Assembly (NCBI RefSeq): GCF_035084215.1
Contig: NC_090363.1
Location: 13,268,001-13,332,000 of the forward strand
Source of the DNA: Heptranchias perlo
Lineage: Eukaryota
Direction of reading: 5' to 3'
DNA: 64,000 nucleotides
Part shown: in pieces, positions 4,439-62,134 of the stretch
Layout: every line of letters starts with the position of its first letter
How positions within the stretch are numbered: position 1 is the first letter of the stretch
Program-made: the position numbers and the translations under genes
Notes under the pieces: generated by a model
Databases searched by the model: none
The model's input: only the letters and a program-made list of their open reading frames with translations
Told to the model about the DNA's origin: nothing

Positions 4439-4834
4439 ATGGCTTTGAGTTTCAATGAGAGTTTACTGTGCTCCATCTGTATTGAGCTCCTGAATGATGC
4501 GACCACCCTGGACTGTGGGCACAGTTACTGCACGTCCTGCATCACCGAATACTGGGACAACCAGCACCCCAAAGTTTCCTGTCCCGACTGCCGGGTGAGC
4601 TTTCCACGCAGGAGCCTGAAGGCGGTCCACGCCCTGAGGAATGAGGTGGAGAGAATCCGGGGGGATCAGGCTGCGAGGCAGGGCCGGCGGGGAGATCAGT
4701 GCCGGCAGCACGGCCGGCCGCTCACCTGGTTCTGTGAGACTGACATGAAGGCGATCTGTGCGGAGTGTGGAGAGGGAGCAGCTCACCCTCAGCACACACT
4801 GAGGGCCATCAGTGACGCTGTTACTGTTTACAAG
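4439..4834 (+). CDS. TRIM (TRIM39/A33-like) exon 1: RING + B-box2
   Basis: C3HC4 RING CSIC..CGHSYCTSC..CPDC; B-box CRQH..FCETD..ICAEC..HPQH; donor AAG|GT, 396 bp, phase 0. Confidence 0.95.
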
Positions 4835-4864
4835 GTGGGGGTTACATTTCAACATTAGTGTGAT

Positions 4865-5585
4865 GTATGTCTGTGTTTAAAGTGTGTATATGTGTATGTC
4901 TGTGTTTAAAGTGTGTATATGTGTATGTCTGTGTTTAAAGTGTGTATATGTGTATGTCTGTGTTTAAAGTGTGTATATGTGTATGTCTGTGTTTAAAGTG
5001 TGTATATGTGTATGTCTGTGTTTAAAGTGTGTATATGTGTATGTCTGTGTTTAAAGTGTGTATATGTGTATGTCTGTGTTTAAAGTGTGTATATGTGTAT
5101 GTCTGTGTTTAAAGTGTGTATATGTGTATGTCTGTGTTTAAAGTGTGTGTAAAAGTGTATGTCTGTGTTTAAAGTGTGTATATGTGTATGTCTGTGTTTA
5201 AAGTGTGTATATGTGTATGTCTGTGTTTAAAGTGTGTATATGTGTATGTCTGTGTTTAAAGTGTGTGTAAAAGTGTATGTCTGTGTTTAAAGTGTGTATA
5301 TGTGTATGTCTGTGTTTAAAGTGTGTATATGTGTATGTCTGTGTTTAAAGTGTGTATATGTGTATGTCTGTGTTTAAAGTGTGTATATGTGTATGTCTGT
5401 GTTTAAAGTGTGTGTAAAAGTGTATGTCTGTGTTTAAAGTGTGTATATGTGTATGTCTGTGTTTAAAGTGTGTATATGTGTATGTCTGTGTTTAAAGTGT
5501 GTATATGTGTATGTCTGTGTTTAAAGTGTGTATATGTGTATGTCTGTGTTTAAAGTGTGTATATGTGTATGTCTGTGTTTAAAGT
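4865..5585. repeat. 29-bp minisatellite, about 25 copies
   Basis: unit gtgtgtatatgtgtatgtctgtgtttaaa, starts about 30 bp after the exon 1 donor. Confidence 0.95.
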
Positions 5586-7345
5586 CTCTACATATATGTG
5601 TGTGCGTGAGATACAGTATATGTGTGTATATTCTGAATATATGCATGAGTGTGTGATACATGATATGTGTATATATATATTCTGTACATATACATGTGTG
5701 GTTGATACAGTATGTGTATGTGTATATTCTGTACATATACAGAATATGTGTGTATGATACCATATGTGTATATTCCGTACATGCACACATGTGTGATACA
5801 ATGCATGTGTACATTCTGTACATATACATGTGTGCGTGATACTGTATATGTGTATATGTGTATTCTGTACATATATGTGTGTGGTTGATACAGTATGTGT
5901 ATGTGTATATTCTGTACATATACAGAATATGTGTGTATGATACCATATGTGTATATTCTGTACATACACACGTGTGTGATACAACATATGTGTACATTCT
6001 GTACATATACACATGTGATACAGTATATGTGTATATGTATATTCTGCACGTGTATATGTGTGATACTTTATATGTGCATGTATATTCTGTGGATATACAT
6101 GTGTGTATGTGTGATACAGTATATGTGTATATTCTGTACCTATACATGTGTGTGATAGAGTATATGTGTATGTGTATATTCTGTACATACAGAATCATAG
6201 AATCTTACAGCTCAGAAGGAGGCCATTCGGCCCATCGTGCCTGTGCCTGCTCTTTCAAAGAGCTGTACAATTTAGTCCCACATCCCAGCTTTTCCTCGTA
6301 GCCCTGCAAATCAGTCCTCTTCAAGTACATGTCCGATTGCCTTTTGAAAGTTCCTATGGAATCTATTTCCACCACCCTTTCAGGTCGTGCGTTCCAGATC
6401 TTAACAACCCTCTGTGGAAAAAATCTCTCCTCATTTCCCCTCTAGTTCTGTGCCAATTTGCCAATTATTTTAAATCTGGTTAACGACCCACTTGCCAGAG
6501 GAATCAGTTTCTCCCTATTTGCTCCATCAAAACCCCTAATTATCAGGTCTCCCCTTAACCTTCTCTGTTCTAAGGAGAGCAATCCCAGCTTCTCCAGTCT
6601 CTCCACATAACTGAAGTCCCTCATCCCTGGAACCATTCTAGTAAATCTCTTCTGCATCCTCTCTAAGGCCTTCACATCCTTCCTGGAGTGCGGTGCCCAG
6701 AATTGGACACAATACTCCAGCTGAGGCCTAACCAGTGTTTTATAAAGGTTTAGCATAACTTCCTTGTTTTTGTATTCAATTCCCCTATTTACGAAGCCAA
6801 GTATCCCATACACTTTCTTAACCACCGCATCAACTTGCCCTGCCACCTTCAAAGATTTGTGAATATCCATGTGCGTGTGTGATACATTATGTGTATATTC
6901 TATACATGTCCATATGTGTGTGATAGAGTATGTGTATATTCTGTACATATGCATGTGTGCAATACAATATATGTGCATGTGTATATTCTGTACATGTCCA
7001 TGTGTGTCTGTGATACAGTATGTGTATATTCTGTACAAATACATGATACAATATATGTGTGTGTGTATATTCTGTAAGCATCCATGTGTGTGTGATACAG
7101 TATGTGTATATTCTGTACCTATCCATATGCGTGTGATACAGTATATGTGTATACTCTGTACATGTCCACACGTGTGTGTGATATAGTATATGTGTAGATT
7201 CTGTATATGTCCATGCGTGTGTGTGATACAGTATATGTATATATTCTGTACATATACATGTGTGTGATACAGTACATGTATATATTCTGTACATATACAT
7301 GTGTGTGATACAGTATATGTGTATATTCTGTACATATACATGTGC
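5586..7345. repeat. Degenerate TG/TA satellite split by a CR1 insertion
   Basis: recurrent 'tatattctgtacatatac..tgtgtgatacag' on both sides of the CR1. Confidence 0.85.
6192..6868 (-). mobile_element. CR1 LINE 3' fragment
   Basis: LYKTLVRPQLEYCVQFWAP..LEQRRLRGDL; (ttctatga)n tail. Confidence 0.9.
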
Positions 7346-7883
7346 GCATATGGCCTTACAATGTGCTAGCTTTGCTCCATTTGTAGCATTTGTCCCTTTG
7401 GGACAGAAGATTGTGGATTTGAGCCCTCCTATCAGGACCTGGGCTGATAATGCATTGTAGAGGCGCTGTCATTTAGATGAGATGCTAAACATCTTTCAAC
7501 AACAACTTGATTTATATAGTGCCTTTAAAGTGGAGAAAGGTCCCAAGGTGCTTCACAGAGGGATAAGGGGAAAAAATAGATGCTAAACCAAAAAAGGAGA
7601 TATTAGGGAGGGTGACCAAAAGCTTAGACAAAGAGGTGGGTTTGAAGGAACAGCTTAAAGGAGGAGCAAGGTGGAGGGATTTAATGGAGGTGTTCAGGGA
7701 AGGAATTATTGAGCAGGGGGTCTAAGCATGGCCATCAATGGTGGGGTGAAGTGAGGAAGAGGTTGGAGTCAGAGGAATGGAGAATTTGGGGAGGAGTGGG
7801 GGGGGGCAAAAGTTACAGAGTCACTGCATATTGAAGTGATGCTCAAGCTGTTGGGTTGGTATCCTGGGAGGTCAAATCTCTGT

Positions 7884-9488: not shown

Positions 9489-9584
9489 GGCGAGCTGAAG
9501 GAATCTTTGGACAGACTGAAGGAGGACGAGGAAGTCATCAACCGGGTTCAACTTAAACAAAAACACAACATTTCAGAGATCGAA
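9489..9584 (+). CDS. TRIM exon 2 (coiled coil)
   Basis: tag|GGC..GAA|gtaagt, 96 bp, the typical TRIM-B30.2 exon size. Confidence 0.9.
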
Positions 9585-9673: not shown

Positions 9674-9907
9674 AAAGTCTATGCGTCTGAGATGAACCAC
9701 ATCGAACAAGATTTCACTGAAATGAGCCAGTTCCTCAGAGCAAAAGAGCAAAGACTGGTGGAAGAACTGGAGGAAAAGAAGGACGAAATTGTGAAAAGGA
9801 TGGAATTAAGATTGGGGGAAATCCAGGAATGTCTGACATCCACTGGAGCGGAAATCGTAAAGAGGGAGAAACAGATGGAGGAACAAGACAACTTTATATT
9901 CCTGCAG
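9674..9907 (+). CDS. TRIM exon 3 (coiled coil)
   Basis: cag|AAA..CAG|gta, 234 bp, FTEMSQFLRAKEQRLVEELEE. Confidence 0.9.
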
Positions 9908-10199: not shown

Positions 10200-10222
10200 G
10201 AATTCAGTTTTCTAAGGCAGAG
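10200..10222 (+). CDS. TRIM exon 4 (23-bp mini-exon)
   Basis: polypyrimidine tract, aag|GAATTC..AG|gtatgt; 23 bp as in other TRIM-B30.2 genes. Confidence 0.85.
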
Positions 10223-10320: not shown

Positions 10321-10436
10321 GCCTCCGGAAGACTTTAAGGCACCAGGTGATATATCTGAAGATCTCTCCTTGGAGATATTAAAAGGCCCTTTACAATACA
10401 GCGTGTGGAAAGAATTGAGGGACGCCATCAGACCAG
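10321..10436 (+). CDS. TRIM exon 5 (linker)
   Basis: cag|G..CCAG|gtga; encodes KGPLQYSVWKEL, a motif typical of fish/shark TRIMs; phases consistent. Confidence 0.9.
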
Positions 10437-11616
10437 GTGAATTGTTAGAAAGAAAGTAAGGCTTGCATTTATATAGCGCCTTTCATGACCTGGTTTGGTA
10501 ACACGGAGCGATCGATTGCCATTTGGAGAATGACTGCAGCAAGAAGGGTCATTTCAAAAAGCATTCTGAGATCTTGAGGCTGATCAGTCTGCCTCCCTTC
10601 CCTCCCCTCTCCCCCTGACTGACTGGCAAGATGGCCTTGATGTATATGAACCTGCCCTCAAGATTTAGTCATGGGTCCGAAACCAGGCCAGAATGGCGGT
10701 CCCAAGTTCTGCTCCATCTTATTTCCGGCAGCAGATCGGGGATCCTGGGATTTCAGGGCATGATCCCATTATTGCACTGCTTTAAGATTGATGGGTAGAA
10801 ATCTGAACGGTTGGAATGAAGAGCTGGATAATGGATCAATCTTAGGAATGTCAGGGTGTAAACACACAGCTCCGAAATCTAGGCCCTGAATTTCGGCGGG
10901 GATAACGCCATTCACCCGTCCTACCAACGGCGAGAGACCGGGAGAATCCCTACGGAAATTCAGGATCCTGGGGCCTGGAGATTGCTTTCCATGGAAGAAC
11001 CGTCACTCAACTCAATCCAACCAATTTGGAGGTTAACCCAGTCCAATCCACACTTAATGGTTCACTGCAACTTTCCCAGATTATCGTTAGTCTGAGCCAG
11101 GACCTTACCCGAGGGCAAATGAGATCAATCCATTCTTACTGATCCTGCTATTCCCTCCTCATCCCCTTATGTTGCTCCGACCAATGCTCTAGATCATTCT
11201 GCTGGCTCAGATGTCTGCAGGACAGAATTCTGGTGGTTGGACGGATTCTAGGGGTGGGTGGATTCTGGGGGGGCGGGTGACTGGTTGGCTGGTGGTAGTG
11301 GGCTGTCTAGCTGGCCCACTTCAAATGGGGGCAGGCTAGCCTTCGATGGCTGACTGCCCCAAGTCTCTGCTCTGCTGTTCCCAGTCTCTAATCCACCTCA
11401 TCGAGCGCTATAAGCATTTGGTTCTCTCTTAAATTTCTGATGTTTATTTTGATTAATCTAAAAGTTGTTTCTGTTCTACTCTCCCTAAGATATAAATGTG
11501 TGACAATCAATTGATAATCATGTTGCAGAAATTGACCTTGAGGTGTCATGGAATTTTTGGTGGCCTTGAATAAATGATGTCTAATATCTTCTTGATCTAT
11601 TTCTGTTTTGTTACAG

Positions 11617-12983
11617 GCCCTGCCTCGCTGACTCTAAACCCTGTCACGGCAAATCCGTGGCTTACTTTGTCTGAGGACCTGACAAGCGTGAGACATGGGA
11701 GTGAGGAGCAGCGATTCCCTGACAACCCTCAGAGATTTGACCTGTGTCCCTGTGTCCTCAGCTCTGACGGATTCACATCGGGGAAGCACTACTGGGAGGT
11801 GAGAGTGGGGAACAAGACCACCTGGACTGTGGGGGTGGCCCGCGAGTCAATCAACAGGAAGGGGGAAATCATACTATCGCCTTCCAATGGATACTGGGCG
11901 GTGGGACTGAGGAACGGGTCTAAATACAAGGCGTTTACCCCATCGCTGACTGATCTCTGCCTGGATATGAAACCCAGGGAGATTGGAGTTTACCTGGACT
12001 ATGAGGGAGGACAAGTATCCTTTTATAATGCTGGTGACATGTCCCATCTTCACACCTTCAGTGACACATTCACTGAGAAGCTCTTTGCTTTCTTCAGTCC
12101 AGGGTTGAATCATGGCAGTAAAAATGCTGAACCCCTTCAGCTGCTTCACTCGATCGTTACAAATCCCAACACCGAGGAGGATGGAACTAGTTCCTGCCCA
12201 GATCTTGAAAGGGAAGATGCAACAATCACCACTTCCAAGGGGAATGCTGTCCACTTGGATCGGAGAGTGTGGCAATGGGCTTGGCTGTGCTTTGGCTTAT
12301 TGGTCTTACTGGGAGCCGCCTCACCAGGAAACGCTAATTTCACGGAGATATACTTGGTGTGTTGTAGTATGCTGGGATTTGTTGGTTTATGCTGGTCGCT
12401 GCTGGATAACAAAAGTCTTGCAGGGATTTCCTGGGTGTACTGCGGCGTACTGGGCTACGCTGGGATGTGTTGCTTACTGCTGGCTCATGCTGGACTTGTT
12501 GGAATCTGCTTGGTTACGTTGAGCTTACTTGGGTTGTGTGTTGCTTCAAAAAGTTACATTGGGCCGCTCTGTGTGGTGCTGAGCTATGCAAGCCTTGTTG
12601 GACTATTATGGTTATTGGACAATGATATTTGGATGTGGTGGGTCTGCTGTGGCTTGCTGGGGCATGCTGGCTCATGCTTGTCTTCGTTAGGCTATGACAA
12701 TGGTGCTGAGATTTGCTGGTGGTGTTGTGGTACAAAGGGGTACGTTGGATTGTGTCTTCTACTGGTGAGCTTTTATGGACTTGTTGGTTTATGCTGGATT
12801 ACAGTGGGCATCATTGGGCTATGCTTGGCTCTGACAGGCTACGTTCGGAACCATTGGATTACGGCTGGCTTGCTGGGCTACAGTGGCGTATGGTGTGTCT
12901 TGGTGGGCAACGCTGAGCTTTCTGCAGTTACACTGGGCGTCGCTAGTTTCTCATGGTCATGTTGGTCCTATTATTCCCACTAA
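11617..12983 (+). CDS. TRIM exon 6: PRY/SPRY (B30.2) plus long multi-TM C-terminal extension
   Basis: [44 protein letters not shown]; frame stays open about 280 aa further to TAA; spliced CDS 2232 nt = 743 aa. Confidence 0.9.
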
Positions 12984-13314: not shown

Positions 13315-13690
13315 TTCTGTCTCTCTCTGTCTGTGGCCCTCGCTGTCTTGGTCTGTCTGTCTGTGGCCCTCGCTGTCTCTGTCTGTCTGTCTATGGCCCT
13401 CGCTGTCTCTATCTGTCTGTCTGTGGCCCTCGCTGTCTCTATCTGTCTGTCTGTGGCCCTCGCTGTCTCTATCTGTCTGTCTGTGGCCCTCGCTGTCTCT
13501 ATCTGTCTGTGGCCCTCGCTGTCTCTATCTGTCTGTCTGTGGCCCTCGCTGTCTCTGTCTGTCTGTGGCCCTCACTGTCTCTGTCTGTCTGTGGCCCTCG
13601 CTGTCTCTATCTGTCTGTCTGTGGCCCTCACTGTCTCTGTCTGTCTGTCTGTGGCCCTCACTGTCTCTGTCTGTCTGTCTGTGGCTCTCA
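13315..13690. repeat. About 30-bp CT-rich minisatellite
   Basis: unit gtctgtctgtctgtggccctcgctgtctct. Confidence 0.9.
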
Positions 13691-17129: not shown

Positions 17130-18349
17130 CTTTGGCTCTCCCATTCCACAGATCCCTCCTCTCTCTCCCATTCCACAGATCCCTCCTCTCCCATTCCACA
17201 GATCCCTCCCCTCGTCCCATTCCACAGATCCCTCCTCTCTCCCATTCCACAGATCCCTCCTCTCTCCCCATTCCACAGATCCCCCCTCTCTCCCATTCCT
17301 CAGATCCCTCCCCTCTCTCCCATTCCACAGATCCCTCCTCTCTCTCCCATTCCTCAGATCCCTCCTCTCTCCCATTCCACAGATCCCTCCTCTCTCTCCC
17401 ATTCCTCAGATCCCTCCCCTCTCTCCCATTCCACAGATCCCTCCTCTCTCTCCCATTCCACAGATCCCTCCTCTCTCTCCCATTCCACAGATCCCTCCTC
17501 TCCCATTCCACAGATCCCTCCCTCGTCCCATTCCACAGATCCCTCCTCTCTCCCATTCCACAGATCCCTCCTCTCTCCCATTCCACAGATCCCTCCCCTC
17601 TCCCATTCCACAGATTCCTCCTCTCTCTCCCCATTCCACAGATCCCTCCTCTCTCTCCCATTCCACAGATCCCTCCTCTCTCCCATTCCACAGATCCCTC
17701 CTCTCTCCCCATTCCTCAGATCCCTCCTCTCTCCCATTCCACAGATCCCTCCCCTGTCTCCCATTCCACAGATCCCTCCTCTCTCCCCCATTCCACAGAT
17801 CCCTCCTCTCTCTCCCATTCCACAGATCCCTCCTCTCTCCCATTCCACAGATCCCTCCTCTCTCTCCCATTCCTCAGATCCCTCCTCTCTCCCATTCCAC
17901 AGATCCCTCCCTCTCTCTCCCATTCCACAGATCCCTCCTCTCTCTCCCATTCCACAGATCCCTCCTCTCTCCCCATTCCACAGATCCCTCCTCTCTCTCC
18001 CATTCCACAGATCCCTCCTCTCTCTCCCATTCCACAGATCCCTCCCCTCTCTCCCCATTCCACAGATCCCTCCCTCTCTCCCATTCCACAGATCCCTCCT
18101 CTCTCCCATTCCACAGATCCCTCCTCTCTCCCATTCCACAGATCCCTCCCCTCTCCCATTCCACAGATCCCTCCTCTCTCCCCCATTCCACAGATCCCTC
18201 CTCTCTCCCATTCCACAGATCCCTCCTCTCTCTCCCATTCCTCAGATCCCTCCCCTCTCCCGAGTGCCTCAGATCCCTCCTCTCTCTCCCATTCCACAGA
18301 TCCCTCTCTCTCTTCGCCATTCTCACAGATCCTCTCCTCTCTCTCGAGA
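17130..18349. repeat. About 26-30-bp pyrimidine-rich minisatellite running into the gap
   Basis: unit ccattccacagatccctcctctctct. Confidence 0.95.
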
Positions 18350-22667: not shown

Positions 22668-25600
22668 ACATACAGCCCCTCGAGCCTGCTCCGCCATTCA
22701 ATAAGATCATGGCTGATCTTCGACCTCAACTCCACTTTCCCGCCCGATCCCCATATCCCTTGATTTCCTTAGAGTCCAAAATTTTATCTATCTCAGCCTT
22801 GAATATATTCAGTGACTCAGCATCCACAGCCCTCTCAGGTAGAGAATTCCAAAGATTCACAACCCTCTGAGTGAAGAAATTCCTCCTCATCTCAGTCCTA
22901 AATGGCCGACCCCTTATCCTGAGACTATGCCCCCTCCAGCCAGGGGAAACAGTCTCTCAGCATCTACCCTGTCAAGCCCCCTCAGAATCTTTTATTTTTC
23001 AATGAGATCACTTCTCATTCTTCTAAACTCCAGAGAGTATAGGTCAGTCCTTCTCAGTCTCTCCTCATAGGACAATCCTCTCATTTCCAGGAATTAATCT
23101 AGTGAACCTTCATTGCACCTACTCCAAAGCAAGTATATCCTTCCTTAGATAAGGAGACCAAAACTGTACACAGTATTCCAGGTGAGATCTCACCAAAGTC
23201 CTGTACAATTGTAGCAAGACTTCCTTACTCTTTACTCCAACCCCCTTGCAATAAAGGCCAACATACCATTTGCCTTCCTAATTGCTCGCTGAACCTGCAT
23301 GTTAACTTTCTGTGTTTCGTGGACAAGGACATCCAAATCCCTCCGAACACCAACATTAATAGTTTCTCACCATTTAAAAACTATTCTGTTTTTTTATTCT
23401 TCCTACCAAAGTGAATAACCTCACATTTCCCCACATTATATTCCATCTGCCACCTCCTTGCCCTCTCACTTAATCTGTCTGTATCCCTTTGCAGACTCTT
23501 TGCATCCTCCTCACAGCTCACTTTCCCACCTAGCTTTGTATCCTCAGCAAACTTGGATACATTACACTCGGTTCCTTCATCTAAGTCATTAATATAGATT
23601 GTAAATAGCTGAGGCCCAAGCACCAATCCTTGTGGCACCCCACTAGTTACAGCCTGCCACCCTGAAAATGACCTGTTTATCCCTACTTGCTGTTTTCTGT
23701 CCGTTAACCAATCCTCTATCCATGCTAATATATTACCCCCAACCCCATGAGCCCTTATCTTGTGTAACAACCTTTTGTGTGGCACCTTATCGAATGCCTT
23801 TTGAAAATCCAAATATACTACATCCACTGGTTCCCCTTTATCTACCCTGCTCGTTACATCCTCAAAAAACTCTTAATAGATTTGTCAACACGATTTCCCT
23901 TTCATAAAACCATGTTGACTCTGCCTAATATGATTTTCTAAGTACCCTGTTACCACTTCCTTTACCAATAATGGATTCCAGCGTTTTCCCGACGACTGAT
24001 GTCAGGCTAACTGGCCTGTACGTAAGAACATAAGAAATAGGAGCAGGAATAGGCCATATGGCCCCTCGAACCTGCTCCTTCATTCACTAAGATCATGGCT
24101 GATCTTCGACCTGAACTTCACTTTCCCGCCCGATCCCCATATCCCTTGATTCCCCTAGAGTCCAAAAATGTATCTATCTCAGCCTTGAATATCCTCAACG
24201 ACTGAGGTGGAGAATTCCAAAGATTCACAACCCTCTGAGTGAAGAAATTCCTTCTCATCTCAGACTTAAATGGCTGACCCCTTATCCTGAGACTATGCTC
24301 CCTAGTTCTAGACTCTCCAACCTCTCAATATCTACCCTGTCAAGCCCTCTCAGAATCTTATATGTTTCAACGAGGTCACCTCTCATTTTTCTAAACTCCA
24401 GAGAGTAGAGGCCCATTCTACTCAATCTCTCCTCATAGAACAACCCTCTCATTCCTGTAGTTCCCTGTTTTCTCTCTCCCTCCTTTCTTGAATAGCGGGG
24501 TTACATTTGCCACCTTCCAATCCACTGGGACCGTTAAAGAATCTAGGGAATTTCGGAAGATCAGAACCAATGCAACCACTATCTCTACAGCCACCTCTTT
24601 TAGAACCCTAGGATGTAGGCCATCAGGTCCAGGGGATTTATCGGCTTTTAGTCCCATTAATTTCTCCAGTACCTTTTCTTTACTAATATTAATTAATTTA
24701 AGTTCCTCACTCTCAGGCCCATTTAGTTCCCCACTATTTCTGGTTTGCTTTTTGTGTCTTCTACTGTGAAGACAAATACAAAATATTTGTTTAACATCTC
24801 TGCCATTCCTTCCCCATTATAATTTCTCCTGTCTCAGCCTCCAAGTAACCCATGTTTACTTTCGCTAATCTCTTCCTTTTTACGTACTTGTAGAAGCTCT
24901 GACAATCTGTTTTTATATTTCTTGCTAGTTTACTCTCATATTCTATTTTCTCCCTTTTTATGAGTTTTTGGTCATCCTTTGCTGGTTTCTAAAACTCTCC
25001 CAATCCTCAGGCTTACTACTATTCTTCACATCATTATAGGCCTCTTCTTTTAATCCAATACTCTCCTTAACTTCTTTAGTTAGCCACGGATAGATCACTT
25101 TTCCGCTGGAGTTTTTATTTCCCAGTGGAATCATAGAATCATGGAAGTTTACAACATGGAAACAGGCCCTTCGGCTCAACATGTCCATGTCGCACAGTTT
25201 ATACCACTAAGCTAGTCCCAATTTCCTGCACTTGGCCCATATCCCTCTATACCCATCTTACCCATGTAACTGTCCAAATGCTTTTTAAAAGACAAAATTG
25301 TACCCGCCTCTACTACTGCCTCTGGCAGCTCGTTCCAGACACTCACCACCCTTTGAGTGAAAAAATTGCCCCTCTGGACCCTTTTGTATCTCTCCCCTCT
25401 CACCTTAAATCTATGTCCCCTCGTTATAGACGCCCCTACCTTTGGGAAAAGATTTTGACTATCTACCTTATCTATGCCCCTCATTATTTTGTAGACTTCT
25501 ATAAGACCACCCCTTAACCTCCTACTCTCCAGGGAAAAAAGTCCCAGTCTATCTAACCTCTCCCTATAAGTCAAACCATCAAGTCCCGGTAGCATCCTAG

Positions 25601-26322
25601 TAAATCTTTTCTGCACTCTTTCTAGTTTAATAATATCCTTTCTATAATAGGGTGACCAGAACTGTACACAGTATTCCAAGTGTGGCCTTACTAATGTCTT
25701 GTACAACTTCAACAAGACATCCCAACTCCTGTATTCAATGTTCTGACCAATGAAACCAAGCATGCCGAATGCCTTCTTCACCACCCTATCCACCTGTGAC
25801 TCCACTTTCAAGGAGCTACGAACCTGTACTCCTAGATCTCTTTGTTCTATAACTCTCCCCAACGCCCTACCATTAACGGAGTAGGTCCTGGCCCGATTCG
25901 ATCTACCAAAATGCATCACCTCACATTTATCTAAATTAAACTCCATCTGCCATTCATCGGCCCACTGGCCCAATTTATCAAGATACCGTTGCAATCCTAG
26001 ATAACCTTCTTCACTGTCCACAATGCCACCAATCTTGGTGTCATCTGCAAACTTACTAACCATGCCTCCTAAATTCTCATCCAAATCATTAATATAAATA
26101 ACAAATAACAGCGGACCCAGCACCGATCCCTGAGGCACACCGCTGGACACAGGCCTCCAGTTTGAAAAACAACCCTCTACAACCACCCTCTGTCTTCTGT
26201 CGTCAAGCCAATTTTGTATCCAATTGCCTACCTCACCTTGGATCCCGTGAGATTTAACCTTATGTAACAACCTACCATGCGGTACCTTGAATGTATGTTC
26301 ATTGAGAATATTTCTTTAAATG
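22668..26322 (-). mobile_element. Nested CR1 complex: host CR1 with inserts at 24021-24453 and 25132-26288
   Basis: RT motifs YLDFQKAFDKVPH, GVPQG, FADD; flanking duplications cctgta (24015/24454) and gaat (25128/26289). Confidence 0.85.
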
Positions 26323-32793: not shown

Positions 32794-34310
32794 GTAAGAA
32801 TCACCTGGGGGTGAGGGGTAAGAGAGACACCTGGTCCTGTCCTGGGAGTGATGATAAGAGAGACACCTGGTCCTCTCAGTCCTGGGGGGTGATGGTGAGA
32901 GAGACACCTGGTCCTCTCAGTCCTGGGGGTGATGGTGAGAGAGACACCTGGTCCTCTCAGTCCTGGGGGTGATGGTGAGAGAGACACCTGGTCCTCTCAG
33001 TCCTGGGGGTGAGGGGTAAGAGACACCTGGTCCTCTCAGTCCTGGGGGTGAGGGGTAAGAGACACCTGGCCCTCTCAGTCCTGGGGGTGATGGTGAGAGA
33101 GACACCTGGTCCTCACAGTCCTGGGGGTGATGGTGAGAGAGACACCTGGTCCTCTCAGTCCTGGGGGTGAGGGGTAAGAGACACCTGGTCCTCTCAGTCC
33201 TGGGGGTGAGGGGTAAGAGACACCTGGTCCTCTCAGTCCTGGGGGTGAGGGGTAAGAGACACCTGGTCCTCACAGTCCTGGGGGTGAGGGGTAAGAGACA
33301 CCTGGTCCTCACAGTCCTGGGGGTGAGGGGTAAGAGACACCTGGCCCTCTCAGTCCTGGAGGTGAGGGGTAAGAGAGACACCTGGTCCTCTCAGTCCTGG
33401 GGGTGAGGGGTAAGAGACACCTGGTCCTCTCAGTCCTGGGGGTGAGGGGTAAGAGACACCTGGTCCTCTCAGTCCTGGGGGTGAGGGGTAAGAGACACCT
33501 GGTCCTCTCAGTCCTGGGGGTGAGGGGTAAGAGACACCTGGTCCTCTCAGTCCTGGGGGTGAGGGGTAAGAGACACCTGGTCCTCTCAGTCCTGGGGGTG
33601 ATGGTGAGAGAGACACCTGGTCCTCACAGTCCTGGGGGTGAGGGGTAAGAGACACCTGGCCCTCTCAGTCCTGGAGGTGAGGGGTAAGAGAGACACCTGG
33701 TCCTCTCAGTCCTGGGGGTGAGGGGTAAGAGACACCTGGTCCTCTCAGTCCTGGGGGTGAGGGGTAAGAGACACCTGGTCCTCTCAGTCCTGGGGGTGAG
33801 GGGTAAGAGACACCTGGTCCTCTCAGTCCTGGGGGTGAGGGGTAAGAGACACCTGGTCCTCTCAGTCCTGGGGGTGAGGGGTAAGAGACACCTGGTCCTC
33901 TCAGTCCTGGGGGTGAGGGGTAAGAGACACCTGGTCCTCTCAGTCCTGGAGGTGAGGGGTAAGAGAGACACCTGGTCCCCTCAGTCCTGGGGGTGAGGGG
34001 TAAGAGACACCTGGTCCTCTCAGTCCTGGGGGTGAGGGGTAAGAGACACCTGGTCCTCTCAGTCCTGGGGGTGAGGGGTAAGAGACACCTGGTCCTCTCA
34101 GTCCTGGGGGTGACGGTGAGAGAGACACCTGGTCCTCTCAGTCCTGGGGGTGAGGGGTAAGAGACACCTGGTCCTCTCAGTCCTGGGGGTGAGGGGTAAG
34201 AGACACCTGGTCCTCTCAGTCCTGGGGGTGAGGGGTAAGAGACACCTGGTCCTCTCAGTCCTGGGGGTGAGGGGTAAGAGAGGCTTCTGGTCCTGCCAGT
34301 CCTGGGGGTG
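32794..34310. repeat. About 39-bp G-rich minisatellite, about 38 copies
   Basis: unit ggggtgaggggtaagagacacctggtcctctcagtcctg, begins at the exon 8 donor. Confidence 0.95.
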
Positions 34311-35419
34311 ACGGCAGGCCGGGGGGTCGAAGAACATCTCATTCAAGCAGACCAGAGTGTCTCGCAGTCAGGCCTTTCTGCTGGGCCATGGCTCTCAGGG
34401 AGCTGTAAGAGTGTTGTGGCCACAGAGTTTTGCTTCCTCACTAATCTTTCCCTCCTCTCCTGAAGACACGGACTTGTGACGAGGCCACTCACCAAAGTGG
34501 CCATTCTTCATGTGTGAGTCTAGCCACTCAGTGTGGACAGGCTATTCCATTATTGAGGCATCACAGCCAAGACCCAGCCTCACCTAAGCAATAATCAGAG
34601 GTCAACAACTGTGTGTGGACCCGAGGCCCACCTACTGATTGTAAAAAAAAAAGATATATTTTTATATTATTTTAATCAGAATTGGTTTAAACTGTGTGCT
34701 CGCCAGTCCTATCTTTTGATCACGCTGACACTGATTATATTGGAGAAGGATGAACAGAATTTCATGGCCAAAGACATTGTACTCTGTAAGGACAGGTACG
34801 TATAGATTATTAAATAGAATAAGCTAATTTGCCTCAGATAGAATTACATAATATTGAGCTAAATTAAAACACGCTGGAGAGAAGGACACACTCAGAGCTG
34901 AAAGGGACGGGCTCTTATCACAGCTGGGGGAAGTGTGTTGAAGGAATTTCGATAGCCAGTGTGGATAAGAGAATACGTTTCCTTTGGGGTAAAGATTGGA
35001 AGGGATGAGACGTCAAAAGCGAACACGAGAAAGGATAACAGCAAACGTGTCAACAGGACACACACAGGGAGGGAGGGACGATTTCTCATCCCCACATTTG
35101 CCCTACGTAACGAAACACACAAGAATACAACGTTCTGAAACTCAAGAGTTAAAAAAAGGGAACTCTCCACTCTCCACTTTCTGAGGCTAGCAGAAACGAT
35201 ATCTCCTGGGTATGGGAGTATAATTGGGACCTTTATCTCATATACACTGCATTAAGGGGTTATATTTTACTATCTCATTAATACTCTTAATTAAAGCAAG
35301 TCAATCCGACATTTTCAGTGTTTCCCCACTCCTCAAATTTGTATTAGCGATAAAGAATATGTGGCAATATCCTAGAATATAATACAAGGGCAATAGGGAT
35401 ATATGACAATATCCCAGAA

Positions 35420-37525
35420 TAAGGACATAAGAAACAGGAGCAGGAGTAGGCCATACAGCCCCTCGAGCCTGCTCCGCCATTCAATAAGATCATGGCTGAT
35501 CTTCGACCTCAACTCCACTTTCCGGCCCGATCCCCATATCCCTTGATTCCCTTAGAGCCCAAAAATCCATCGATCTCAGCCTTGAATGTACTCAACGACT
35601 CAACATCCACAGCCCTCTGAGGTAGAGAATTCCAACCCTCTGAGTGAAGAAATTCCTCCACATCTCAGTCTTAAATGGCCGATCCCTTATCCTGAGACTA
35701 TGCCTCCTAATTCTAGACTCTCCTGCCAGAGGGACAATCTCTCAGCATCTACCCTGTCGAGCCCTCTCAGAATCTTATTTGTTTCAATGAGATCACCTCT
35801 CATTCTTCTAAACTCCAGAGAGAATAGGCCCATTCTACTCAACCTCTCCTCATAGGACAACCCTCTCATCCCAGGAATTAATCTAGTGAACCTTCGCTGC
35901 ACCGCCTCTAAGGCAAGTATATCCTTCCTTAGATAAGGAGACCAAAACTGTACACAGTACTCCAGATGTGGTCTCACCAAAGTCCTGTACAATTGTAGCA
36001 AGACTTCCTTACTCTTGTACTCCAAACCCCTTGCAATAAAGGCCAACATTCCATTTGCCTTCCTAATTGGATGTTGTACCTGCTTGTTAACTTTTTGTGT
36101 TTCTTGTACCCGGAAGTCCCAAGTCTCTCTGAACACCAACATTTAATAGTTTCTCACCATTTAAAAAAAATTCTGCTTTTCTATTCTTCCTATCAAAGTA
36201 AATAACCTCACATTTCCCCACATTATACTCCATCTGCCACCTTCTTGCCCACTCGCTTAACCTGTCTGTATCCCTTTGCAGATGCTTTGTATCCTCCTCA
36301 GAGCTTACTTTCCCACCTAGCTTTGTATTGTCAGCAAACTTGGATACATTACACACGGTCCCTTCATCTAAGTCATTAATATAGATTGTAAATAGCTGGG
36401 GCCCAAGCACTGATCCTTGCGGTACCCCACTAGTTACAGCCTGCCAACCTGAAAATGACCTGTTTATTCCTACTCTCTGTTTTCTGTCCGTTAACCAATC
36501 CTCAATCCATGCAAATATATTACCCCCAACCCCATGAGCCCTTATCTTGCATAACAACCTTTTATGTGGCACCTTATCGAATGCCTTTGGAAAATCCAAA
36601 TATACTACATCCACTGGTTCCCCTTTATCCTGCTAGTTACACCCTCAAAAAACTCTAATAAATTTGTCAGACACGATTTCCCTTTCATAAAACTATGTTG
36701 ACTCTGCCTAATCATATTATGATTTTCTAAGTGCTCTGTTACCACTGCCTTAATAATAGATTCCAGCATTTTCCCGACGACTGATGTCAGGCTAACTGGC
36801 CTGTAGTTCCCTGTTTTCTCTCTCCCTCCTTTCTTGAATAGCGGGGTTACATTTGCTACCGTCCAATCTGCTGGGACCATTCTAGAATCTAGGGAATTTT
36901 GAAAGATCAAAACCAATGCACCCACTATCTCTGCAGCCACCTCTTTTCGAACCCTAGGATGTAGGCCATCAGGTCCAGGGGATTTATAGGCTTTTAGTCC
37001 CATTAGTTTCTCCAGTACTTTTTCTCTACTGATAATAATTACTTTAATCCTCACTCTCATTTGCCCCTTGATTCCCCACTATTCCTAGTATGCTTTTTGT
37101 GTCTTCCACTGTGAAGACAGATACAAAATATTTGTTTAACATCTCTGCCATTTCCTTATTCCTGATTATAATTTCTCCTGTCTCAGCCTCTAAGGGACCA
37201 ACGTTTACTTTCGCTAATCTCTTCCTTTTTATATACTTGTCGAAGCTCTTACAATCCGTTTTTATATTTCTTGCTGGTTTACTCTCATATTCTATTTTCT
37301 CCCTTTTTATGAGTTTTTGGTCATCCTTTGCTGGTTTCTAAAACTCTCCCAATCCTCAGGTTTACTACTATTCTTCACATCATTATAGGCCTCTTCTTTT
37401 AATCTAATACTAAAATTAACTTCCTTAGTTCGCCACGGGTGGATCACTTTTCCTGTGGAGTTTTTATTTCTCAATAGAATGTTTATTTGTTGAGAATATT
37501 GAAATATTTCTTTAAATGTTTGCCA
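35420..37525 (-). mobile_element. CR1 LINE fragment of about 2.1 kb
   Basis: KSPGPDGLHPRV, GNYRPVSLTS, GVPQGSVLGP; same subfamily as the 22668 host. Confidence 0.9.
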
Positions 37526-44668: not shown

Positions 44669-46340
44669 CTACTCGGATTCCTCGCTCGCCGGCTGCGGTT
44701 TCTTCCCGAGTTTGCCCCGGACGGCGATGGCTCGGTCGACGGTCAGCAGGCTCCTCAGGCACTGCAGCGCCGAAATCAGCAGGTGCCGTTTGGAGGCCAC
44801 CACCTCCAGGGGCCCCTCGTTCACCGGCGGCCCCCCTCCCGCCCCGAGACCGGCGGTGAAGTCGGCGTGAAGCCGGAGGAAGTCCCGGCCCCGCCCGGCC
44901 TGGGAGTGAACGTGCCGGGGGATGTTGAGCAAGGCGTCCGCCACCACGGTGCACGCCGCCCTGGTGTCGGGCCGCTGCCGGCTCTCGGCGTCACGCCGGA
45001 GGTAGTGGTGCATCAGGAACTCAAAGGCGCCGCCCGGGGGCAGCACGCTCCCGGCAGGCACGGCACCATCGCTCGGGTCCCCCTCCCGGGCACTGGCTGC
45101 CGGATCTGCCGACCGGCAGCGGTCGACTCCCTCTGCCGGAGTCTCGGACTCGGTGTCCTGGATCCTCTTGCTGTTGGCACCCGCCTGGCCCTCCGTTTCA
45201 TCTTCGGCTCTCCCCAGCTCCCCGGCCCCGCGTCTCTCGCTCCCCTTCCCCAGCCCGCTGTCTTTCCCCCTCGCCCCCGACTCCGGCGGCAGCAGCAGCC
45301 GCAGCAGCTTGAAGGCCCCGTGGACTGCGTCGCGATGCTGCGCGGCCTGCCCCTGGACCGGGGCGCACAGCACCAGGCAGTGGGGTCTGAAACCGTCCCT
45401 GGCCTGGAATCCCACCAGAACCTGCCCGAGCGGCCCTGGCCGGCAGAAGGTGGCCAGGACGGTGTGGGAGAGCTGAGCCCCCCTGGCCCGAGAGAGGGGG
45501 GCCGCGCCCGTCAGCCTCCTCACCAGGCCCAGCTCCTCCCCCGACAGGCCCTGAACCACCGAGACCCCGTGTTGCTGGGCTAACTCGAGCACGCAGCCCG
45601 GCTGCTGGGGGCCTGAGAGCAGCAGCCGCACCCCCAGCCCCCGCAGGCCAGCCACGGCCTCCTCTGCCCTACTCCGGGCCCAGGCTCGGGCCTCCGCCAG
45701 GTCCTGGGCCCTCTCCAGCCTCAAGGTGCAGCCAGCCTGGCTCAGGGGGGGCAGCAGGCTGCAGGTGACCACCAGCACCCTCATCTCCCCCTCGGCCTGG
45801 CAGAGCACGGCCAGGCCCCGGCCCAGCGCCAGGCCCTCCAGCACCCTGGTGCGGCCCACGGGGAGGCCGGTCACCGTGCAGTGCAGGCCTGAGAAGCATT
45901 CGTCGGCGAGGCCCAGGGCCGTCTCCACGCCCCCCTCAGGGGGAGCCAGGCAGCCCAGGAGCTCGAGGGTGACCCGGGTGAGGACGGGGCCGTGGGCACT
46001 GCCCGCCTTGCCGCTGAAGTAAGGCCCCAGCACCCGGGCCGCCTGCCCCCTGGGGAGCTGGGACCGGCCCCGGGAGAAGGAGAGGGCCGAGGAGCAGTGA
46101 GGGGCCAGCTGACGCCCCATCACCCGGTCCAGGACCTCCACCTCCAGCCTGGCCAGGCCCAACGCCAGCCTGGCCTGCTGCGCTCGGGCTCTCTGCCCTC
46201 TGCTCCCCCCCACCCCAGCGGGGCCTTCCCCTCCCGTCTGGGCCTGCACTCCCCGCAGCAACGCGGCCAGCAGCAGGATGAAGGACTTGGCTCCGTCTCC
46301 AGTCGAGCTGCAGTGGGCTAACACACACTGAACCATCAAC
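44669..46340 (-). CDS. BBS10: BBS10 chaperonin-like protein, last coding exon
   Basis: LMVQCVLAHCSSTGDGAKSFILLL, LVLCAPVQG, VLPPGGAFEFLMHHYL, PLEVVASK; acceptor ttttccccag|G. Confidence 0.93.
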
Positions 46341-46540
46341 CTGGGGAAAACAAGGAGAATTACACCGAGTTACATTGAATGCACAGCACAGAAACAGGCC
46401 ATTCGGCCCAACTGGTCTATGCTGTTGTTTATGCTCCACACGAGCCTCCTCCCTCCCGAATTCATCTCACCCTGTCACCTTATCCTTCTATTCCTTTCTC
46501 CCTCATGTGTTTATCCAGCTTCCCCTTAAATGTATCTATG

Positions 46541-48285
46541 TGCGGAACCACAAGAGATGGGTGAGATCCTGAATGAATATTTCACATCGGTATTTACGGT
46601 TGAGAAAGGCATGGATGTTAGGGAACTTGGGGAAATAAATAGTGATGTCTTGAGGAGTGTACATATTACAGAGAGGGAGGTGCTGGAAGTCTTAACGCGC
46701 ATCAAGGTAGATAAATCTCCGGGACCTGATGAAATGTATCCCAGGACGTTATGGGAGGTTAGGGAGGAAATTGCGGGTCCCCTAGCAGAGATATTTGAAT
46801 CATCCACCGCTACAGGTGAGGTGCCTGAAGATTGGAGGGTAGCAAATGTTGTGCCTTTGTTTAAGAAGGGCGGCAGGGAAAAGCCTGGGAACTACAGACC
46901 GGTGTGCCTGACATCTGTAGTGGGTAAGTTGTTCGAGGGTATTCTGAGGGACAGGATCGACAGGCATTTGGAGAGGCAGGGACTGATCAGGAACAGTCAG
47001 CATGGTTTTGTGAGAGGAAAATCATGTCTCACGAATTTGATTGAGTTTTTTGAAGGGGTAACCAAGAAGATAGATGAGGGCTGTGCAGTAGACGTGGTCT
47101 ACATGGACTTCAGCAAAGCATTTGACAAGGTACCACATGGTAGGTTGTTACATAAGGTTAAATCTCATGGGATCCAAGGTGAGGTAGCCAATTGGATACA
47201 AAATTGGATTGACGACAGAAGACAGAGGGTGGTTGTAGAGGGTTGTTTTACAAACTGGAGGCCTGTGACCAGCGGTGTGCCTCAGGGATTGGTGCTGGGT
47301 CCGTTGTTATTTGTTATTTATATTAATGATTTGGATGAGAATTTAGGAGGCATGGTTAGTAAGTTTGCAGATGACACCAAGATTGGTGGCATTGTGGACA
47401 GTGAAGAAGGTTATCTAGGATTGCAACGGGATCTTGATAAATTGGGCCAGTGGGCCGATGAATGGCAGATGGAGTTTAATTTAGATAAATGTGAGGTGAT
47501 GCATTTTGGTAGATCGAATCGGGCCAGGACCTACTCCGTTAATGGTAGGGCGTTGGGGAGAGTTATAGAACAAAGAGATCTCGGAGTACAGGTTCATAGC
47601 TCCTTGAAAGTGGAGTCACAGGTGGATAGGGTGGTGAAGAAGGCATTCAGCATGCTTGGTTTCATTGGTCAGAACATTGAATACAGGAGTTGGGATGTCT
47701 TGTTGAAGTTGTACAGGACATTAGTAAGGCCACACTTGGAATACTGTGTACAGTTCTGGTCACCCTATTATAGAAAGGATATTATTAAACTAGAAAGAGT
47801 GCAGAAAAGATTTACTAGGATGCTACCGGGACTTGATGGTTTGACTTATAGGGAGAGGTTGGATAGACTGAGACTTTTTTCCCTGGAGAGTAGGAGGTTT
47901 AGGGGTGATCTTATAGAAGTCTATAAAATAATGAGGGGCATAGATAAGGTAGATAGTCAAAATCTTTTCCCAAAGGTAGGGGAGTCTATAACGAGGGGGC
48001 ATAGATTTAAGGTGAGAGGGGAGAGATACAAAAGGGTCCAGAGGGGCAATTTTTTCACTCAAAGGGTGGTGAGTGTCTGGAACGAGCTGCCAGAGGCAGT
48101 AGTAGAGGCGGGTATAATTTTGTCTTTTAAAAAGCATTTGGACAGTTACACGGATAAGATGGGTATAGAGGGATATGGGCCAAGTGCAGGCAATTGGGAC
48201 GAGCTTGGTGGTATAAACTGGGCGACATGGACATGTTGGGCCGAAGGGCCTGTTTCCATGTTGTAAACTTCTATGATTCTATGAT
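46541..48285 (+). mobile_element. Young 5'-truncated CR1 LINE with uninterrupted RT frame, nested in an older minus-strand CR1 3' fragment (about 46365-48365)
   Basis: 578-aa ORF with YMDFSKAFDKVPH, GVPQG, FADD; near-identical to 25132-26288. Confidence 0.95.
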
Positions 48286-51526: not shown

Positions 51527-53455
51527 CACTGTCCCATCAAACACTCCCAGAGCAGGTACAGCACGGGTTCGATACAGAGTAAAGCTCCCTCTACACTGTC
51601 CCATCAAACACTCCCAGGGCAGGTACAGCATGGGTTCGATACAGAGTAAAGCTCCCTCTACACTGTCCCATCAAACACTCCCAGGGCAGGAACAGCACGG
51701 GTTCGATACAGAGTAAAGCTCCCTCTACACTGTCCCATGAAACACTCCCAGGGCAGGAACAGCACGGGTTCGATACAGAGTAAAGCTCCCTCTACACTGT
51801 CCCATCAAACACTCCCAGGGCAAGTACAGCACGGGTTAGATACAGAGTAAAGCTCCCTCTACACTGTCCCATCAAACACTCCCAGGGCAGGTACAGCACG
51901 GGTTAGATACAGAGTAAAGCTCCCTCTACACTGTCCCATCAAACACTCCCAGGGCAGGTACAGCACGGGTTCGATACAGAGTAAAGCTCCCTCTACACTG
52001 TCCCATCAAACACTCCCAGGGCAAGTACAGCATGGGTTAGATACAGAGTAAAGCTCCCTCTACACTGTCCCATCAAACACTCCCAGGGCAGGTACAGCAC
52101 GGGTTAGATACAGAGTAAAGCTCCCTCTACACTGTCCCATCAAACACTCCCAGGGCAGATACAGCCCGGGTTAGATACAGAGTAAAGCCCCCTCTGCACT
52201 GTCCCATCAAACACTCCCAGGGCAGGTACAGCACGGGTTCGATACAGAGTAAAGCTCCCTCTACACTGTCCCATCAAACACTCCCAGGGCAGGTACAGCA
52301 CGGGTTAGATACAGAGTAAAGCTCCCTCTACACTGTCCCATCAAACACTCCCAGGGCAGGTACAGCACGGGTTCGATACAGAGTAAAGCTCCCTCTACAC
52401 TGTCCCATCAAACACTCCCAGGGCAGGTACAGCACGGGTTCGATACAGAGTAAAGCTCCCTCTACACTGTCCCATCAAACACTCCCAGGGCAGGTACAGC
52501 ACGGGTTAGATACAGAGTAAAGCTCCCTCTACACTGTCCCATCAAACACTCCCAGGGCAGATACAGCCCGGGTTAGATACAGAGTAAAGCCCCCTCTGCA
52601 CTGTCCCATCAAACACTCCCAGGGCAGGTACAGCACGGGTTCGATACAGAGTAAAGCTCCCTCTACACTGTCCCATCAAACACTCCCAGGGCAGGTACAG
52701 CACGGGTTAGATACAGAGTAAAGCTCCCTCTACACTGTCCCATCAAACACTCCCAGGGCAGGTACAGCACGGGTTAGATACAGAGTAAAGCTCCCTCTAC
52801 ACTGTCCCATCAAACACTCCCAGGGCAGGTACAGCACGGGTTCGATACAGAGTAAAGCTCCCTCTACACTGTCCCATCAAACACTCCCAGGGCAGGTACA
52901 GCACGGGTTCGATACAGAGTAAAGCTCCCTCTACACTGTCCCATCAAACACTCCCAGGGCAGGTACAGCACGGGTTAGATACAGAGTAAAGCTCCCTCTA
53001 CACTGTCCCATCAAACACTCCCAGGGCAGATACAGCCCGGGTTAGATACAGAGTAAAGCCCCCTCTGCACTGTCCCATCAAACACTCCCAGGGCAGGTAC
53101 AGCACGGGTTAGATACAGAGTAAAGCTCCCTCTACACTGTCCCATCAAACACTCCCAGGGCAGGTACAGCACGGGTTAGATACAGAGTAAAGCCCCCTCT
53201 GCACTGTCCCATCAAACACTCCCAGGGCAGGTACAGCACGGGTTAGATACAGAGTAAAGCCCCCTCTGCACTGTCCCATCAAACACTCCCAGGGCAGGTA
53301 CAGCACGGGTTAGATACAGAGTAAAGCTCCCTCTACACTGTCCCATCAAACACTCCCAGGGCAGGTACAGCACGGGTTAGATACAGAGTAAAGCTCCCTC
53401 TGCACTGTCCCACCAAACACTCCCAGGGCAGGTACAGCACAGGTTCGATACAGAG
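51527..53455. repeat. 67-bp minisatellite, about 29 copies
   Basis: unit gtaaagctccctctacactgtcccatcaaacactcccagggcaggtacagcacgggttagatacaga. Confidence 0.95.
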
Positions 53456-54086
53456 TGTCTTGGGTAGTGATCAAGAGGGGAAATGTTTGCTGATTGCTCC
53501 CCTCACCCCCGATACCCAGGGGTCTGAACCACTTTGGGGGGTAATGGCAGTTCCCACAGGTAGCTCACCTCCGCACTCAGAGAAAGTGTTGGCGAGAACT
53601 GTTCCCAACAGGTCAGCTGATGCCTCACCGTTGTCAGGCCGGCGATGATATCCTGTGCTGGCAGTTAGATTCAAAAGTCACTCTATCCAGTCTGTGAAAA
53701 ATAAAATCACAAGTGAGACTCGATTATGAAAACATTTCATCGAAAAAGAAATTGCATTTGTATAGCGCCTTCCTCGACCTCAGGATGTCCCAAAGCATTT
53801 TTCAGCCAATGACGTACTTTTGAAATGTAGTTACCGTTGTAATGCTGGAAACATGGTGCCAATTTACGCACAGCAAGATCCCACAAACAGCCATGTGATA
53901 ATGACCGGATAATCTGTGTTAGCGAAGGGATAAATATTGGCCCAGGACACTGGGGGGGGTGCAGGGCAGGGGAGGGAACTCCCCTGCTCTTCTTCGAAAT
54001 GATGTGGAGATGCCGGTGATGGACTGGGGTGGACAAATGTAAGGAATCTTACAACACCAGGTTATAGTCCAACAAATTTATTTTAA

Positions 54087-54127: not shown

Positions 54128-54842
54128 GAATGAAAAGGTTCTCAAATCGCATATCTTATACGATGTTGGGACAGCATCACACCAATCAAAAGGTGTCGTT
54201 GTTATTCAAACAGGCCAGTCACGGAGAACAGAACGTCCCAGTACACTCGATATACATTGTGTCTTTTACACAGGCAAGCAGAAAGAAACTTAAAATGGCA
54301 GAGAGAGAGAGAGAATTTTAAAAAACATATAAATTTTTTCCCCCTTTTTGCTGGTGGGGTTACGTGTAGCGTGACATGAACCCAAGATCCCGGTTGAGGC
54401 CGTCCTCATGGGTGCGGAACTTGGCTATCAACTTCTGCTCGACGATTTTGCGTTGTCGTGTGTCTCGAAGGCCGCCTTGGAGAACGCTTACCCGAAGATC
54501 GGTGGCTGAATGTCCTTGACTGCTAAAGTGTTCCCCGACTGGGAGGGAACCCTCCTGTTTGGCGATTGTTGCGCGGTGTCCGTTCATCCGTTGTCGCAGC
54601 GTCTGCATGGTCTCGCCAATGTACCATGCTCCGGGGCATCCTTTCCTGCAACGTATGAGGTAAACAACGTTGGCCGAGTCACAGGAGTATGAACCATGTA
54701 CCTGGTGGGTGGTGTCCTCTCGTGTGAACTGGGACGTTCTGTTCTCCGTGACTGGCCTGTTTGAATAACAACGACACCTTTTGATTGGTGTGATGCTGTC
54801 CCAACATCGTATAAGATATGCGATTTGAGAACCTTTTCATTC

Positions 54843-62132: not shown

Positions 62133-62134
62133 TG

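Follow-up and report, generated by a model that had tools for sequence, protein, structure and literature searches.

How non-coding DNA gives rise to new structured protein domains is an open question; ancient examples seldom keep traces of their source. A locus in the sevengill shark Heptranchias perlo raises this question: in the 64,000-nucleotide stretch of contig NC_090363.1 analysed here (the window, whose positions are used throughout), an open frame at 11574-12983 encodes 469 residues in which PRY and SPRY domains are followed by a long hydrophobic tail. We think it probable that the gene is a TRIM of sharks and rays whose tail derives from a decayed decamer repeat, likely non-coding when it was captured, and from a later duplication of 285 bases, and that this tail forms about ten anchoring helices.

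The window carries a six-exon TRIM gene, whose joined exons translate exactly to RefSeq model P0002, all with AG/GT boundaries. NCBI names P0002 TRIM39-like (Heptranchias perlo), and its orthologs appear in RefSeq as TRIM69-like, A33-like or NF7-like. The parts of the gene are the following:

4439..4834, + strand: coding exon 1, with the start codon, a C3HC4 RING (4469-4591) and a B-box (4691-4804)
9489..9584, + strand: exon 2, 96 bases, coiled coil (TRIM_CC 155-267)
9674..9907, + strand: exon 3, coiled coil (six-exon translation identical to P0002)
10200..10222, + strand: exon 4, 23 bases (six-exon translation identical to P0002)
10321..10436, + strand: exon 5, 116 bases (six-exon translation identical to P0002)
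11617..12983, + strand: last coding exon, with PRY-SPRY, linker and tail in a single open frame; stop at 12981-12983
11628..12122, + strand: PRY (11628-11774) and SPRY (11784-12122), Pfam E 2.8e-22 and 2.1e-27
12147..12269, + strand: acidic, indel-rich, poorly conserved linker, starting where the inspected paralogs stop
12270..12980, + strand: hydrophobic tail of 237 residues, rich in Leu, Gly, Ala, Cys and Trp, in no Pfam family

Pfam detects the RING (zf-C3HC4, residues 11-51, 37.2 bits against a cut-off of 21), the B-box (zf-B_box, 85-122, 32.9 bits against 24.1) and the coiled coil (TRIM_CC, 155-267), which in a full-length structural model corresponds to a helix at 122-247. The resulting order of RING, B-box, coiled coil and PRY-SPRY is that of the class C-IV TRIMs, expansions of which have been described (PMC3137616, PMC10445537), and like them this gene sits inside a large PRY-SPRY cluster. 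Unlike in class C-IV, the PRY-SPRY is not the C-terminal domain, and because 278 residues come after it the gene is, by its sequence, a C-IV-derived variant rather than a plain member of the class. In two runs of a related organism, presumed to be RNA, contigs extend from 11614, beside the exon acceptor, to 13114 and leave the intron uncovered; over the tail their pieces differ from this genome at 40 of 509 and 38 of 487 bases, with zero gaps. Two runs of H. perlo itself, presumed to be RNA, yielded no near-identical contig, which speaks neither for nor against expression since a filter drops some records. No RING was seen in ray models (P0007, P0019 and the second part of P0022) and no B-box match in zebra shark model P0008, while PRY-SPRY and tail persist in all of these. 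Such absences could mean that some lineages have lost ligase function or that the models are faulty, so E3 activity of the tail-bearing TRIM may not be general across lineages.

PRY-SPRY matches number at least 151 in this genome, where 150 of 317 candidates were scored and 150 matches listed. Among the 149 other listed matches none has a comparable C-terminal extension, their frames measuring 94-279 residues plus one of 386. The paralog with this longest frame, 54 kb upstream, was considered as a second C-terminally extended gene and rejected, its frame extending upstream instead. Direct reading of 15 paralogs placed their stop 113-142 residues past the YWE motif; in this gene it lies 398 residues past HYWEV. 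Dozens of the 150 listed matches form a very large PRY-SPRY exon cluster on this contig, at about 1.9-14.6 Mb, and further near-identical groups sit on small contigs. Just upstream of the window lies a tail-less TRIM (L018:1200, L017:370-1029), with an orthologous neighbour in catsharks, stingrays and sawfish. In a tree of 33 PRY-SPRY domains (midpoint-rooted for drawing only), built without skate P0011, which lacks a full SPRY, and without the near-duplicates P0012, P0014, P0016 and P0020, the 13 tail-bearing domains form one group with a branch support of 100/100. Public models P0015, P0019 and P0022 fuse the tail-less neighbour with the tail-bearing gene, probably in error.

The tail is present in proteins of 16 shark and ray species and was not found elsewhere. 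The sharks are the sevengill, sawshark, horn, basking, white, zebra, whale and epaulette sharks, two catsharks and two bamboo sharks, and the rays are two stingrays, one sawfish and one skate. A profile of 10 tails had two matches among 1.84 billion 50% representatives, and searches at the level of 90% clusters gave 11 clusters (about 8000 candidates scored per search), in both cases exclusively elasmobranch; searches of longer and of similar-length proteins (about 8000 candidates scored each) brought in the sawfish only. No match in chimaeras or bony vertebrates appeared in the profile searches, in which 50% clusters could hide a chimaera ortholog, and this hints faintly at an absence of the tail from those groups. 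Pfam, run on 10 tails at E<=1, returned one chance match (E 0.31). In the openly accessible main texts searched, we found no description of the gene, the tail or the repeat, nor of the TRIM repertoire of cartilaginous fishes; shark genome papers may mention the gene.

Could such a frame be a neutral read-through or an annotation artefact devoid of function? A stop-free repeat, as described below, tolerates frameshifts, and the open frame alone therefore says little; nor did the listing of sequencing runs contain one recorded as RNA. Against this, the tail frame is of near-constant length in sharks and rays (234-238 residues over the aligned stretches), the lineages having split some 250-300 million years ago. 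Its identity to the 15 orthologs is 46-75%, compared with 51-83% for PRY-SPRY (14 orthologs with the full domain), 49-69% for the coiled coil and 12-63% for the linker, so that it is conserved about as much as the coiled coil and far above the adjoining linker. Within it 41 residues are invariant, among them 6 Cys and 8 Trp. By these comparisons purifying selection acts on the tail at the protein level; because it is conserved about like the coiled coil it is not accidental read-through, as the initial annotation of this DNA had argued, and a functionless frame seems to us hardly credible. Its first helix, with a small-residue turn and an N-F-T sequon (12270-12344), has the look of a signal peptide, the sequon being present in 4 of the 16 species.

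The same annotation had taken the tail DNA not to be an obvious tandem repeat. The DNA is repetitive, with a period of 10 bases, and constitutes a decayed tandem array:

12345..12980, + strand: decayed array of about 65 decamer units with consensus GCTATGCTGG; of 619 bases aligned, 427 agree with it

Identity to the consensus GCTATGCTGG is 69%, with 42 units of 10 bases, 14 of 9 and 5 of 11; a weaker decamer signal extends back to about 12231, and the fit to the decamer is weak over the first 25 residues of the tail. The autocorrelation of the tail DNA at 10 bases is 0.403, against 0.279 in codon-shuffled sequences (z 7.0, the 99th percentile of the null maximum being 4.1) and 0.351 in synonymous-shuffled ones (0 of 1000 reaching the observed value), with harmonics near 20, 30, 39, 49, 59, 69 and 78 bases (z 6.0 at offset 78). 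There is no enrichment at the in-frame offset of 9 in the tail DNA (z 1.0), and the autocorrelation control on the SPRY DNA is free of the 10-base periodicity. When periods of 6-14 were compared by wrap-around alignment the decamer scored best, with 294 against 188 for the next, period 9, and 12 codon shuffles scored from -32 to 38. A scan of the window for the unit placed the top six of 1276 200-base windows all on the tail (scores 74-94; next 28). Tandem Repeats Finder at a score of 50 listed no array on the tail, because the array is too decayed.

The repeat can also be recovered from silent sites. With third positions hidden, the first two codon positions yielded a unit that predicted 52 of 104 fourfold-degenerate bases correctly, against 33.8-37.2 under four stratified nulls (p<=0.0002). 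Both halves of the tail passed separately (p 0.001-0.022), and the controls were null, with 21 of 84 sites right in the SPRY and 14 of 56 in the RING exon. Three other sources were considered and rejected: helical glycine spacing as the source of the period (the signal is present at silent sites, with no enrichment at offset 9), CpG avoidance as the source of the silent-site signal (ruled out by stratifying on the next base), and a protein-driven artefact as the source of the decamer, against which the masked prediction argues. A pure array would read C-W-A-M-L-G-Y-A-G-L, stop-free, in all three forward frames, the peptide being the same in each since 3 does not divide 10; the opposite strand has one stop per ten codons. 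This decapeptide corresponds to the motif CG..GY.G.C noticed earlier by eye, and it fits in order in all 10 ortholog tails tested (z 4.2-8.1), with scores reached by 0 of 200 permuted peptides in nine tails and by 1 of 200 in the other.

Superimposed on the array is a longer duplication, with a period of 95 residues or 285 bases:

12345..12563, + strand: copy A, with three predicted helices
12630..12848, + strand: copy B, likewise with three predicted helices, at boundaries displaced by about 95 residues

The initial annotation had aligned the 73 residues of the two copies without gaps and counted 31 identities by hand. The number is exactly 31 of 73; in 2000 composition shuffles of a 212-residue stretch of the tail, the strongest ungapped 73-residue self-match at any offset averaged 14.6 identities (sd 1.3, maximum 21). 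The underlying period of about 26 residues that it described was recovered as well (39 of 186 identities at offset 26), and the duplication is indeed old, with 20-32 identities in 67-73 positions between the copies in 16 of 16 species. As DNA the copies are identical at 134 of 219 bases, with 42, 48 and 44 of 73 at codon positions 1, 2 and 3, and their silent sites are alike at offset 285 (0.524 against 0.445 in synonymous shuffles, 0 of 1000). Arrays that decayed independently gave a best 219-base self-match of 91.7 +/- 5.7 (maximum 113, n=500) against the 134 observed, and the next-best offset in the tail itself gave 102. Of 186 in-phase sites, 36 differ from the consensus in both copies, where 20.6 are expected, and 22 of these have the same base in A and B; because the copies share these departures, the duplication is later than the decay of the array. 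The 13- and 26-residue periods would then be 10-base units with occasional 1-base losses, since 39 bases are four units minus 1 and 78 are eight units minus 2.

In the reading of the initial annotation, the copies go back to an old protein-level duplication of a helical membrane unit; selection for pseudo-symmetry would have kept them similar, and the DNA underneath would not be a repeat. The 31 of 73 identities agree with this, as do the helix boundaries, which match between copies in one weak model (the full-length one, with three helices per copy at boundaries about 95 residues apart, at low confidence), a between-copy dN/dS of 0.54 (dN 0.46, dS 0.86) and the better conservation in orthologs of positions identical between copies (0.70 against 0.54, p=0.005). 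However, the out-of-frame 10-base period and the silent-site prediction contradict it, the bootstrap interval of pN/pS (0.46-1.03) includes 1, and the conservation excess loses significance once stratified by residue type (p=0.19). The dN/dS falls below 1, as had been expected of the copies, but the pN/pS interval reaches 1.03; protein-level conservation stood for the tail as a whole, which is under purifying selection, but not as the explanation of the likeness between copies, whose silent sites are alike too; and purifying selection for pseudo-symmetry was not borne out. Selection keeping the two copies alike is thus at best weakly suggested by the sequences, and as an account of origin this reading is largely refuted and, in our estimation, very improbable.

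If the tail is repeat-derived, it could have been coding beforehand, in a mobile element or a lost gene, and have been fused to the TRIM afterwards. The weak decamer fit of its first 25 residues would suit such a fusion, and so would the failure to find an intact non-coding array in this genome, where the assembly holds 0 exact two-unit matches and a DNA search returned the self match only. On the other hand, SPRY and tail share one exon with no splice junction between them, and the tail is single-copy in the genome, a second copy being found neither as protein (150 of 197 candidates scored) nor by DNA search (self match only). Nor is there a stand-alone homolog among the 1.84 billion representatives, where both matches are elasmobranch, and the sole short match, skate P0011, starts with residues left over from the end of SPRY and is apparently a partial model. 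We regard a fusion as improbable.

Capture of a non-coding repeat, which we consider likely from the sequence, would have proceeded in four steps. An ordinary PRY-SPRY TRIM would first have been extended, by loss of its stop, into a decamer array on its 3' side; tail-less paralogs end about where the linker of this gene begins. Gains of units and 1-base slips would then have left the frame open and hydrophobic, because a pure array gives the stop-free decapeptide in every forward frame. Next the array decayed and 285 bases of it were duplicated, as the departures shared by the copies show. All of this predates the split of sharks and rays, since orthologs in both share the tail, which selection has kept ever since.

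The surroundings of the gene are themselves repetitive. The window is rich in young minisatellites (61 rows, e.g., 1263-1820, 4864-7346, 13322-13689, 17136-18345, 32804-34311 and 51527-53456), none with the unit of the tail, and one of them begins about 340 bases past the stop of this gene. Reverse transcriptase fragments (RVT_1) at 23381-23872, 25212-26315, 36087-37078 and 61611-62237 (- strand) and at 46530-48266 (+ strand) are likely LINE remnants, and a weak, below cut-off GIY-YIG match at 54360-54836 (- strand) is possibly Penelope-like. A GC-rich frame of 566 residues at 44669-46369 (- strand), with a Cpn60_TCP1 match (E 1.5e-13), serves as downstream synteny marker; by its look we take it to be the large exon of a BBS10-type chaperonin-like gene.

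What the tail does can be approached from its composition and from structural models. It contains only 11 charged residues in 237, together with 21 Cys. The tail model and the full-length model are both all-helical, with nine or ten helices and short loops, the former at a weak pLDDT of 65.5 and pTM of 0.61; the five tail models span pLDDT 47.6-65.5, and the full-length model, at 47.9, is too weak for domain contacts. From these predictions we infer a multi-pass anchor of about ten helices in an internal membrane, which would likely tether an E3 ligase to membranes. Fold searches with the weak tail model gave no clear match, a result that tells neither a new fold nor a known one: Foldseek had a best E of 0.29, VIA-align a best Z of 8.0 (a three-helix bundle, rmsd 2.3 over 71 residues, within the background for helical models), and ESM Atlas a best score of 0.80 to uninformative bacterial hypothetical clusters.

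The main rival to a multi-pass anchor is binding at the membrane surface. With the same repeat origin, the tail would form palmitoylated hairpins on a membrane surface or on lipid droplets, or else cross-link or cluster TRIMs through its cysteines. There are 16-21 Cys per tail across the 16 species, with CC and WWCC motifs; the 6 Cys and 8 Trp among the 41 invariant residues point the same way, and half of the helices are marginal on an insertion scale (5 of 10 segments at or below +1.5 kcal/mol and so favourable or nearly so, 5 of 10 at +2.8 to +5.5; a rough, position-independent scale). Yet the ten predicted helices, of 16-27 residues and separated by short loops, look membrane-spanning, conserved polar residues lie at helix ends (P525, E532, D623 and E722), and the Cys content is already accounted for by the codons of the decamer. 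A surface-bound or cross-linking tail is thus unlikely, if still worth serious thought. For the multi-pass anchor, general TRIM biology would suggest a protein that dimerises through its coiled coil, binds a target with its PRY-SPRY on the cytosolic face and ubiquitinates it by means of the RING; the tail would hold this assembly on the ER or an endosome, much as TRIM13 is held by its single transmembrane segment. The paired Cys residues of the tail would likely carry palmitate.

TRIM13 and TRIM59, of class C-XI, carry no PRY-SPRY and have a short anchor; they resemble the present protein as TRIMs with a C-terminal hydrophobic anchor (a predicted one here), but this gene has a PRY-SPRY. No sequence similarity of the tail to either appeared in the profile searches, which found elasmobranch proteins only, and by analogy the gene would resemble class C-XI in its working while standing outside it. 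In TRIM13 the C-terminal hydrophobic segment is needed for ER location and ERAD, according to a review that limits such segments to TRIM13 and TRIM59 (PMC7479839). Zebrafish btr31 has a transmembrane segment in place of B-box and coiled coil (PMC3137616), a position different from that of this C-terminal tail. Judged from two reviews, the combination of PRY-SPRY with a multi-helix hydrophobic tail lies outside the eleven TRIM classes.

As to the origin, the tail is built from tandem short units, and no homolog outside the lineage was found in the searches made, as is the case for repeat-born coding sequences. Ohno reportedly proposed that primordial coding sequences came from oligomer repeats, in which a unit not divisible by three encodes one periodic peptide in all frames. 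The decamer consensus is a frame-independent, frameshift-resistant unit of this kind; his claim, however, concerned the earliest genes, whereas the shark tail would be a datable vertebrate case. The codfish antifreeze glycoprotein gene was built from a non-coding 9-base unit (PMC6410882); like the shark tail it is a coding sequence made of tandem short DNA units, and it was joined to an open frame by mutation, as is proposed for the shark. In the codfish the unit is in frame and encodes a single tripeptide, its repetition is still obvious, and a non-coding ancestor has been demonstrated, whereas the shark tail has a 10-base unit decayed to 69%, predicted membrane helices and a putative non-coding ancestor. 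Read-through into downstream DNA is also known from the yeast Pis1 stop-loss, which adds 59 residues and one predicted transmembrane helix (PMC4494051), and from human orf143, where repeat-mediated elongation reads into a tandem array (PMC12888051). These extensions are recent, short or of unproven protein function, unlike the extension of about 278 residues described here, which is conserved across sharks and rays.

We lean, by a modest degree, towards the fuller view that a ten-helix membrane domain arose from a non-coding, frameshift-proof 10-base minisatellite and defines a shark-and-ray class of membrane-tethered PRY-SPRY TRIM sensors. The steps from repeat to domain are directly testable, because the source repeat is retained at silent sites, sharks and rays alike have orthologs, and paralogs without the tail lie next to the gene. 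If true, the birth of a folded multi-pass membrane domain from frameshift-proof repeat DNA could here be dated in a vertebrate.
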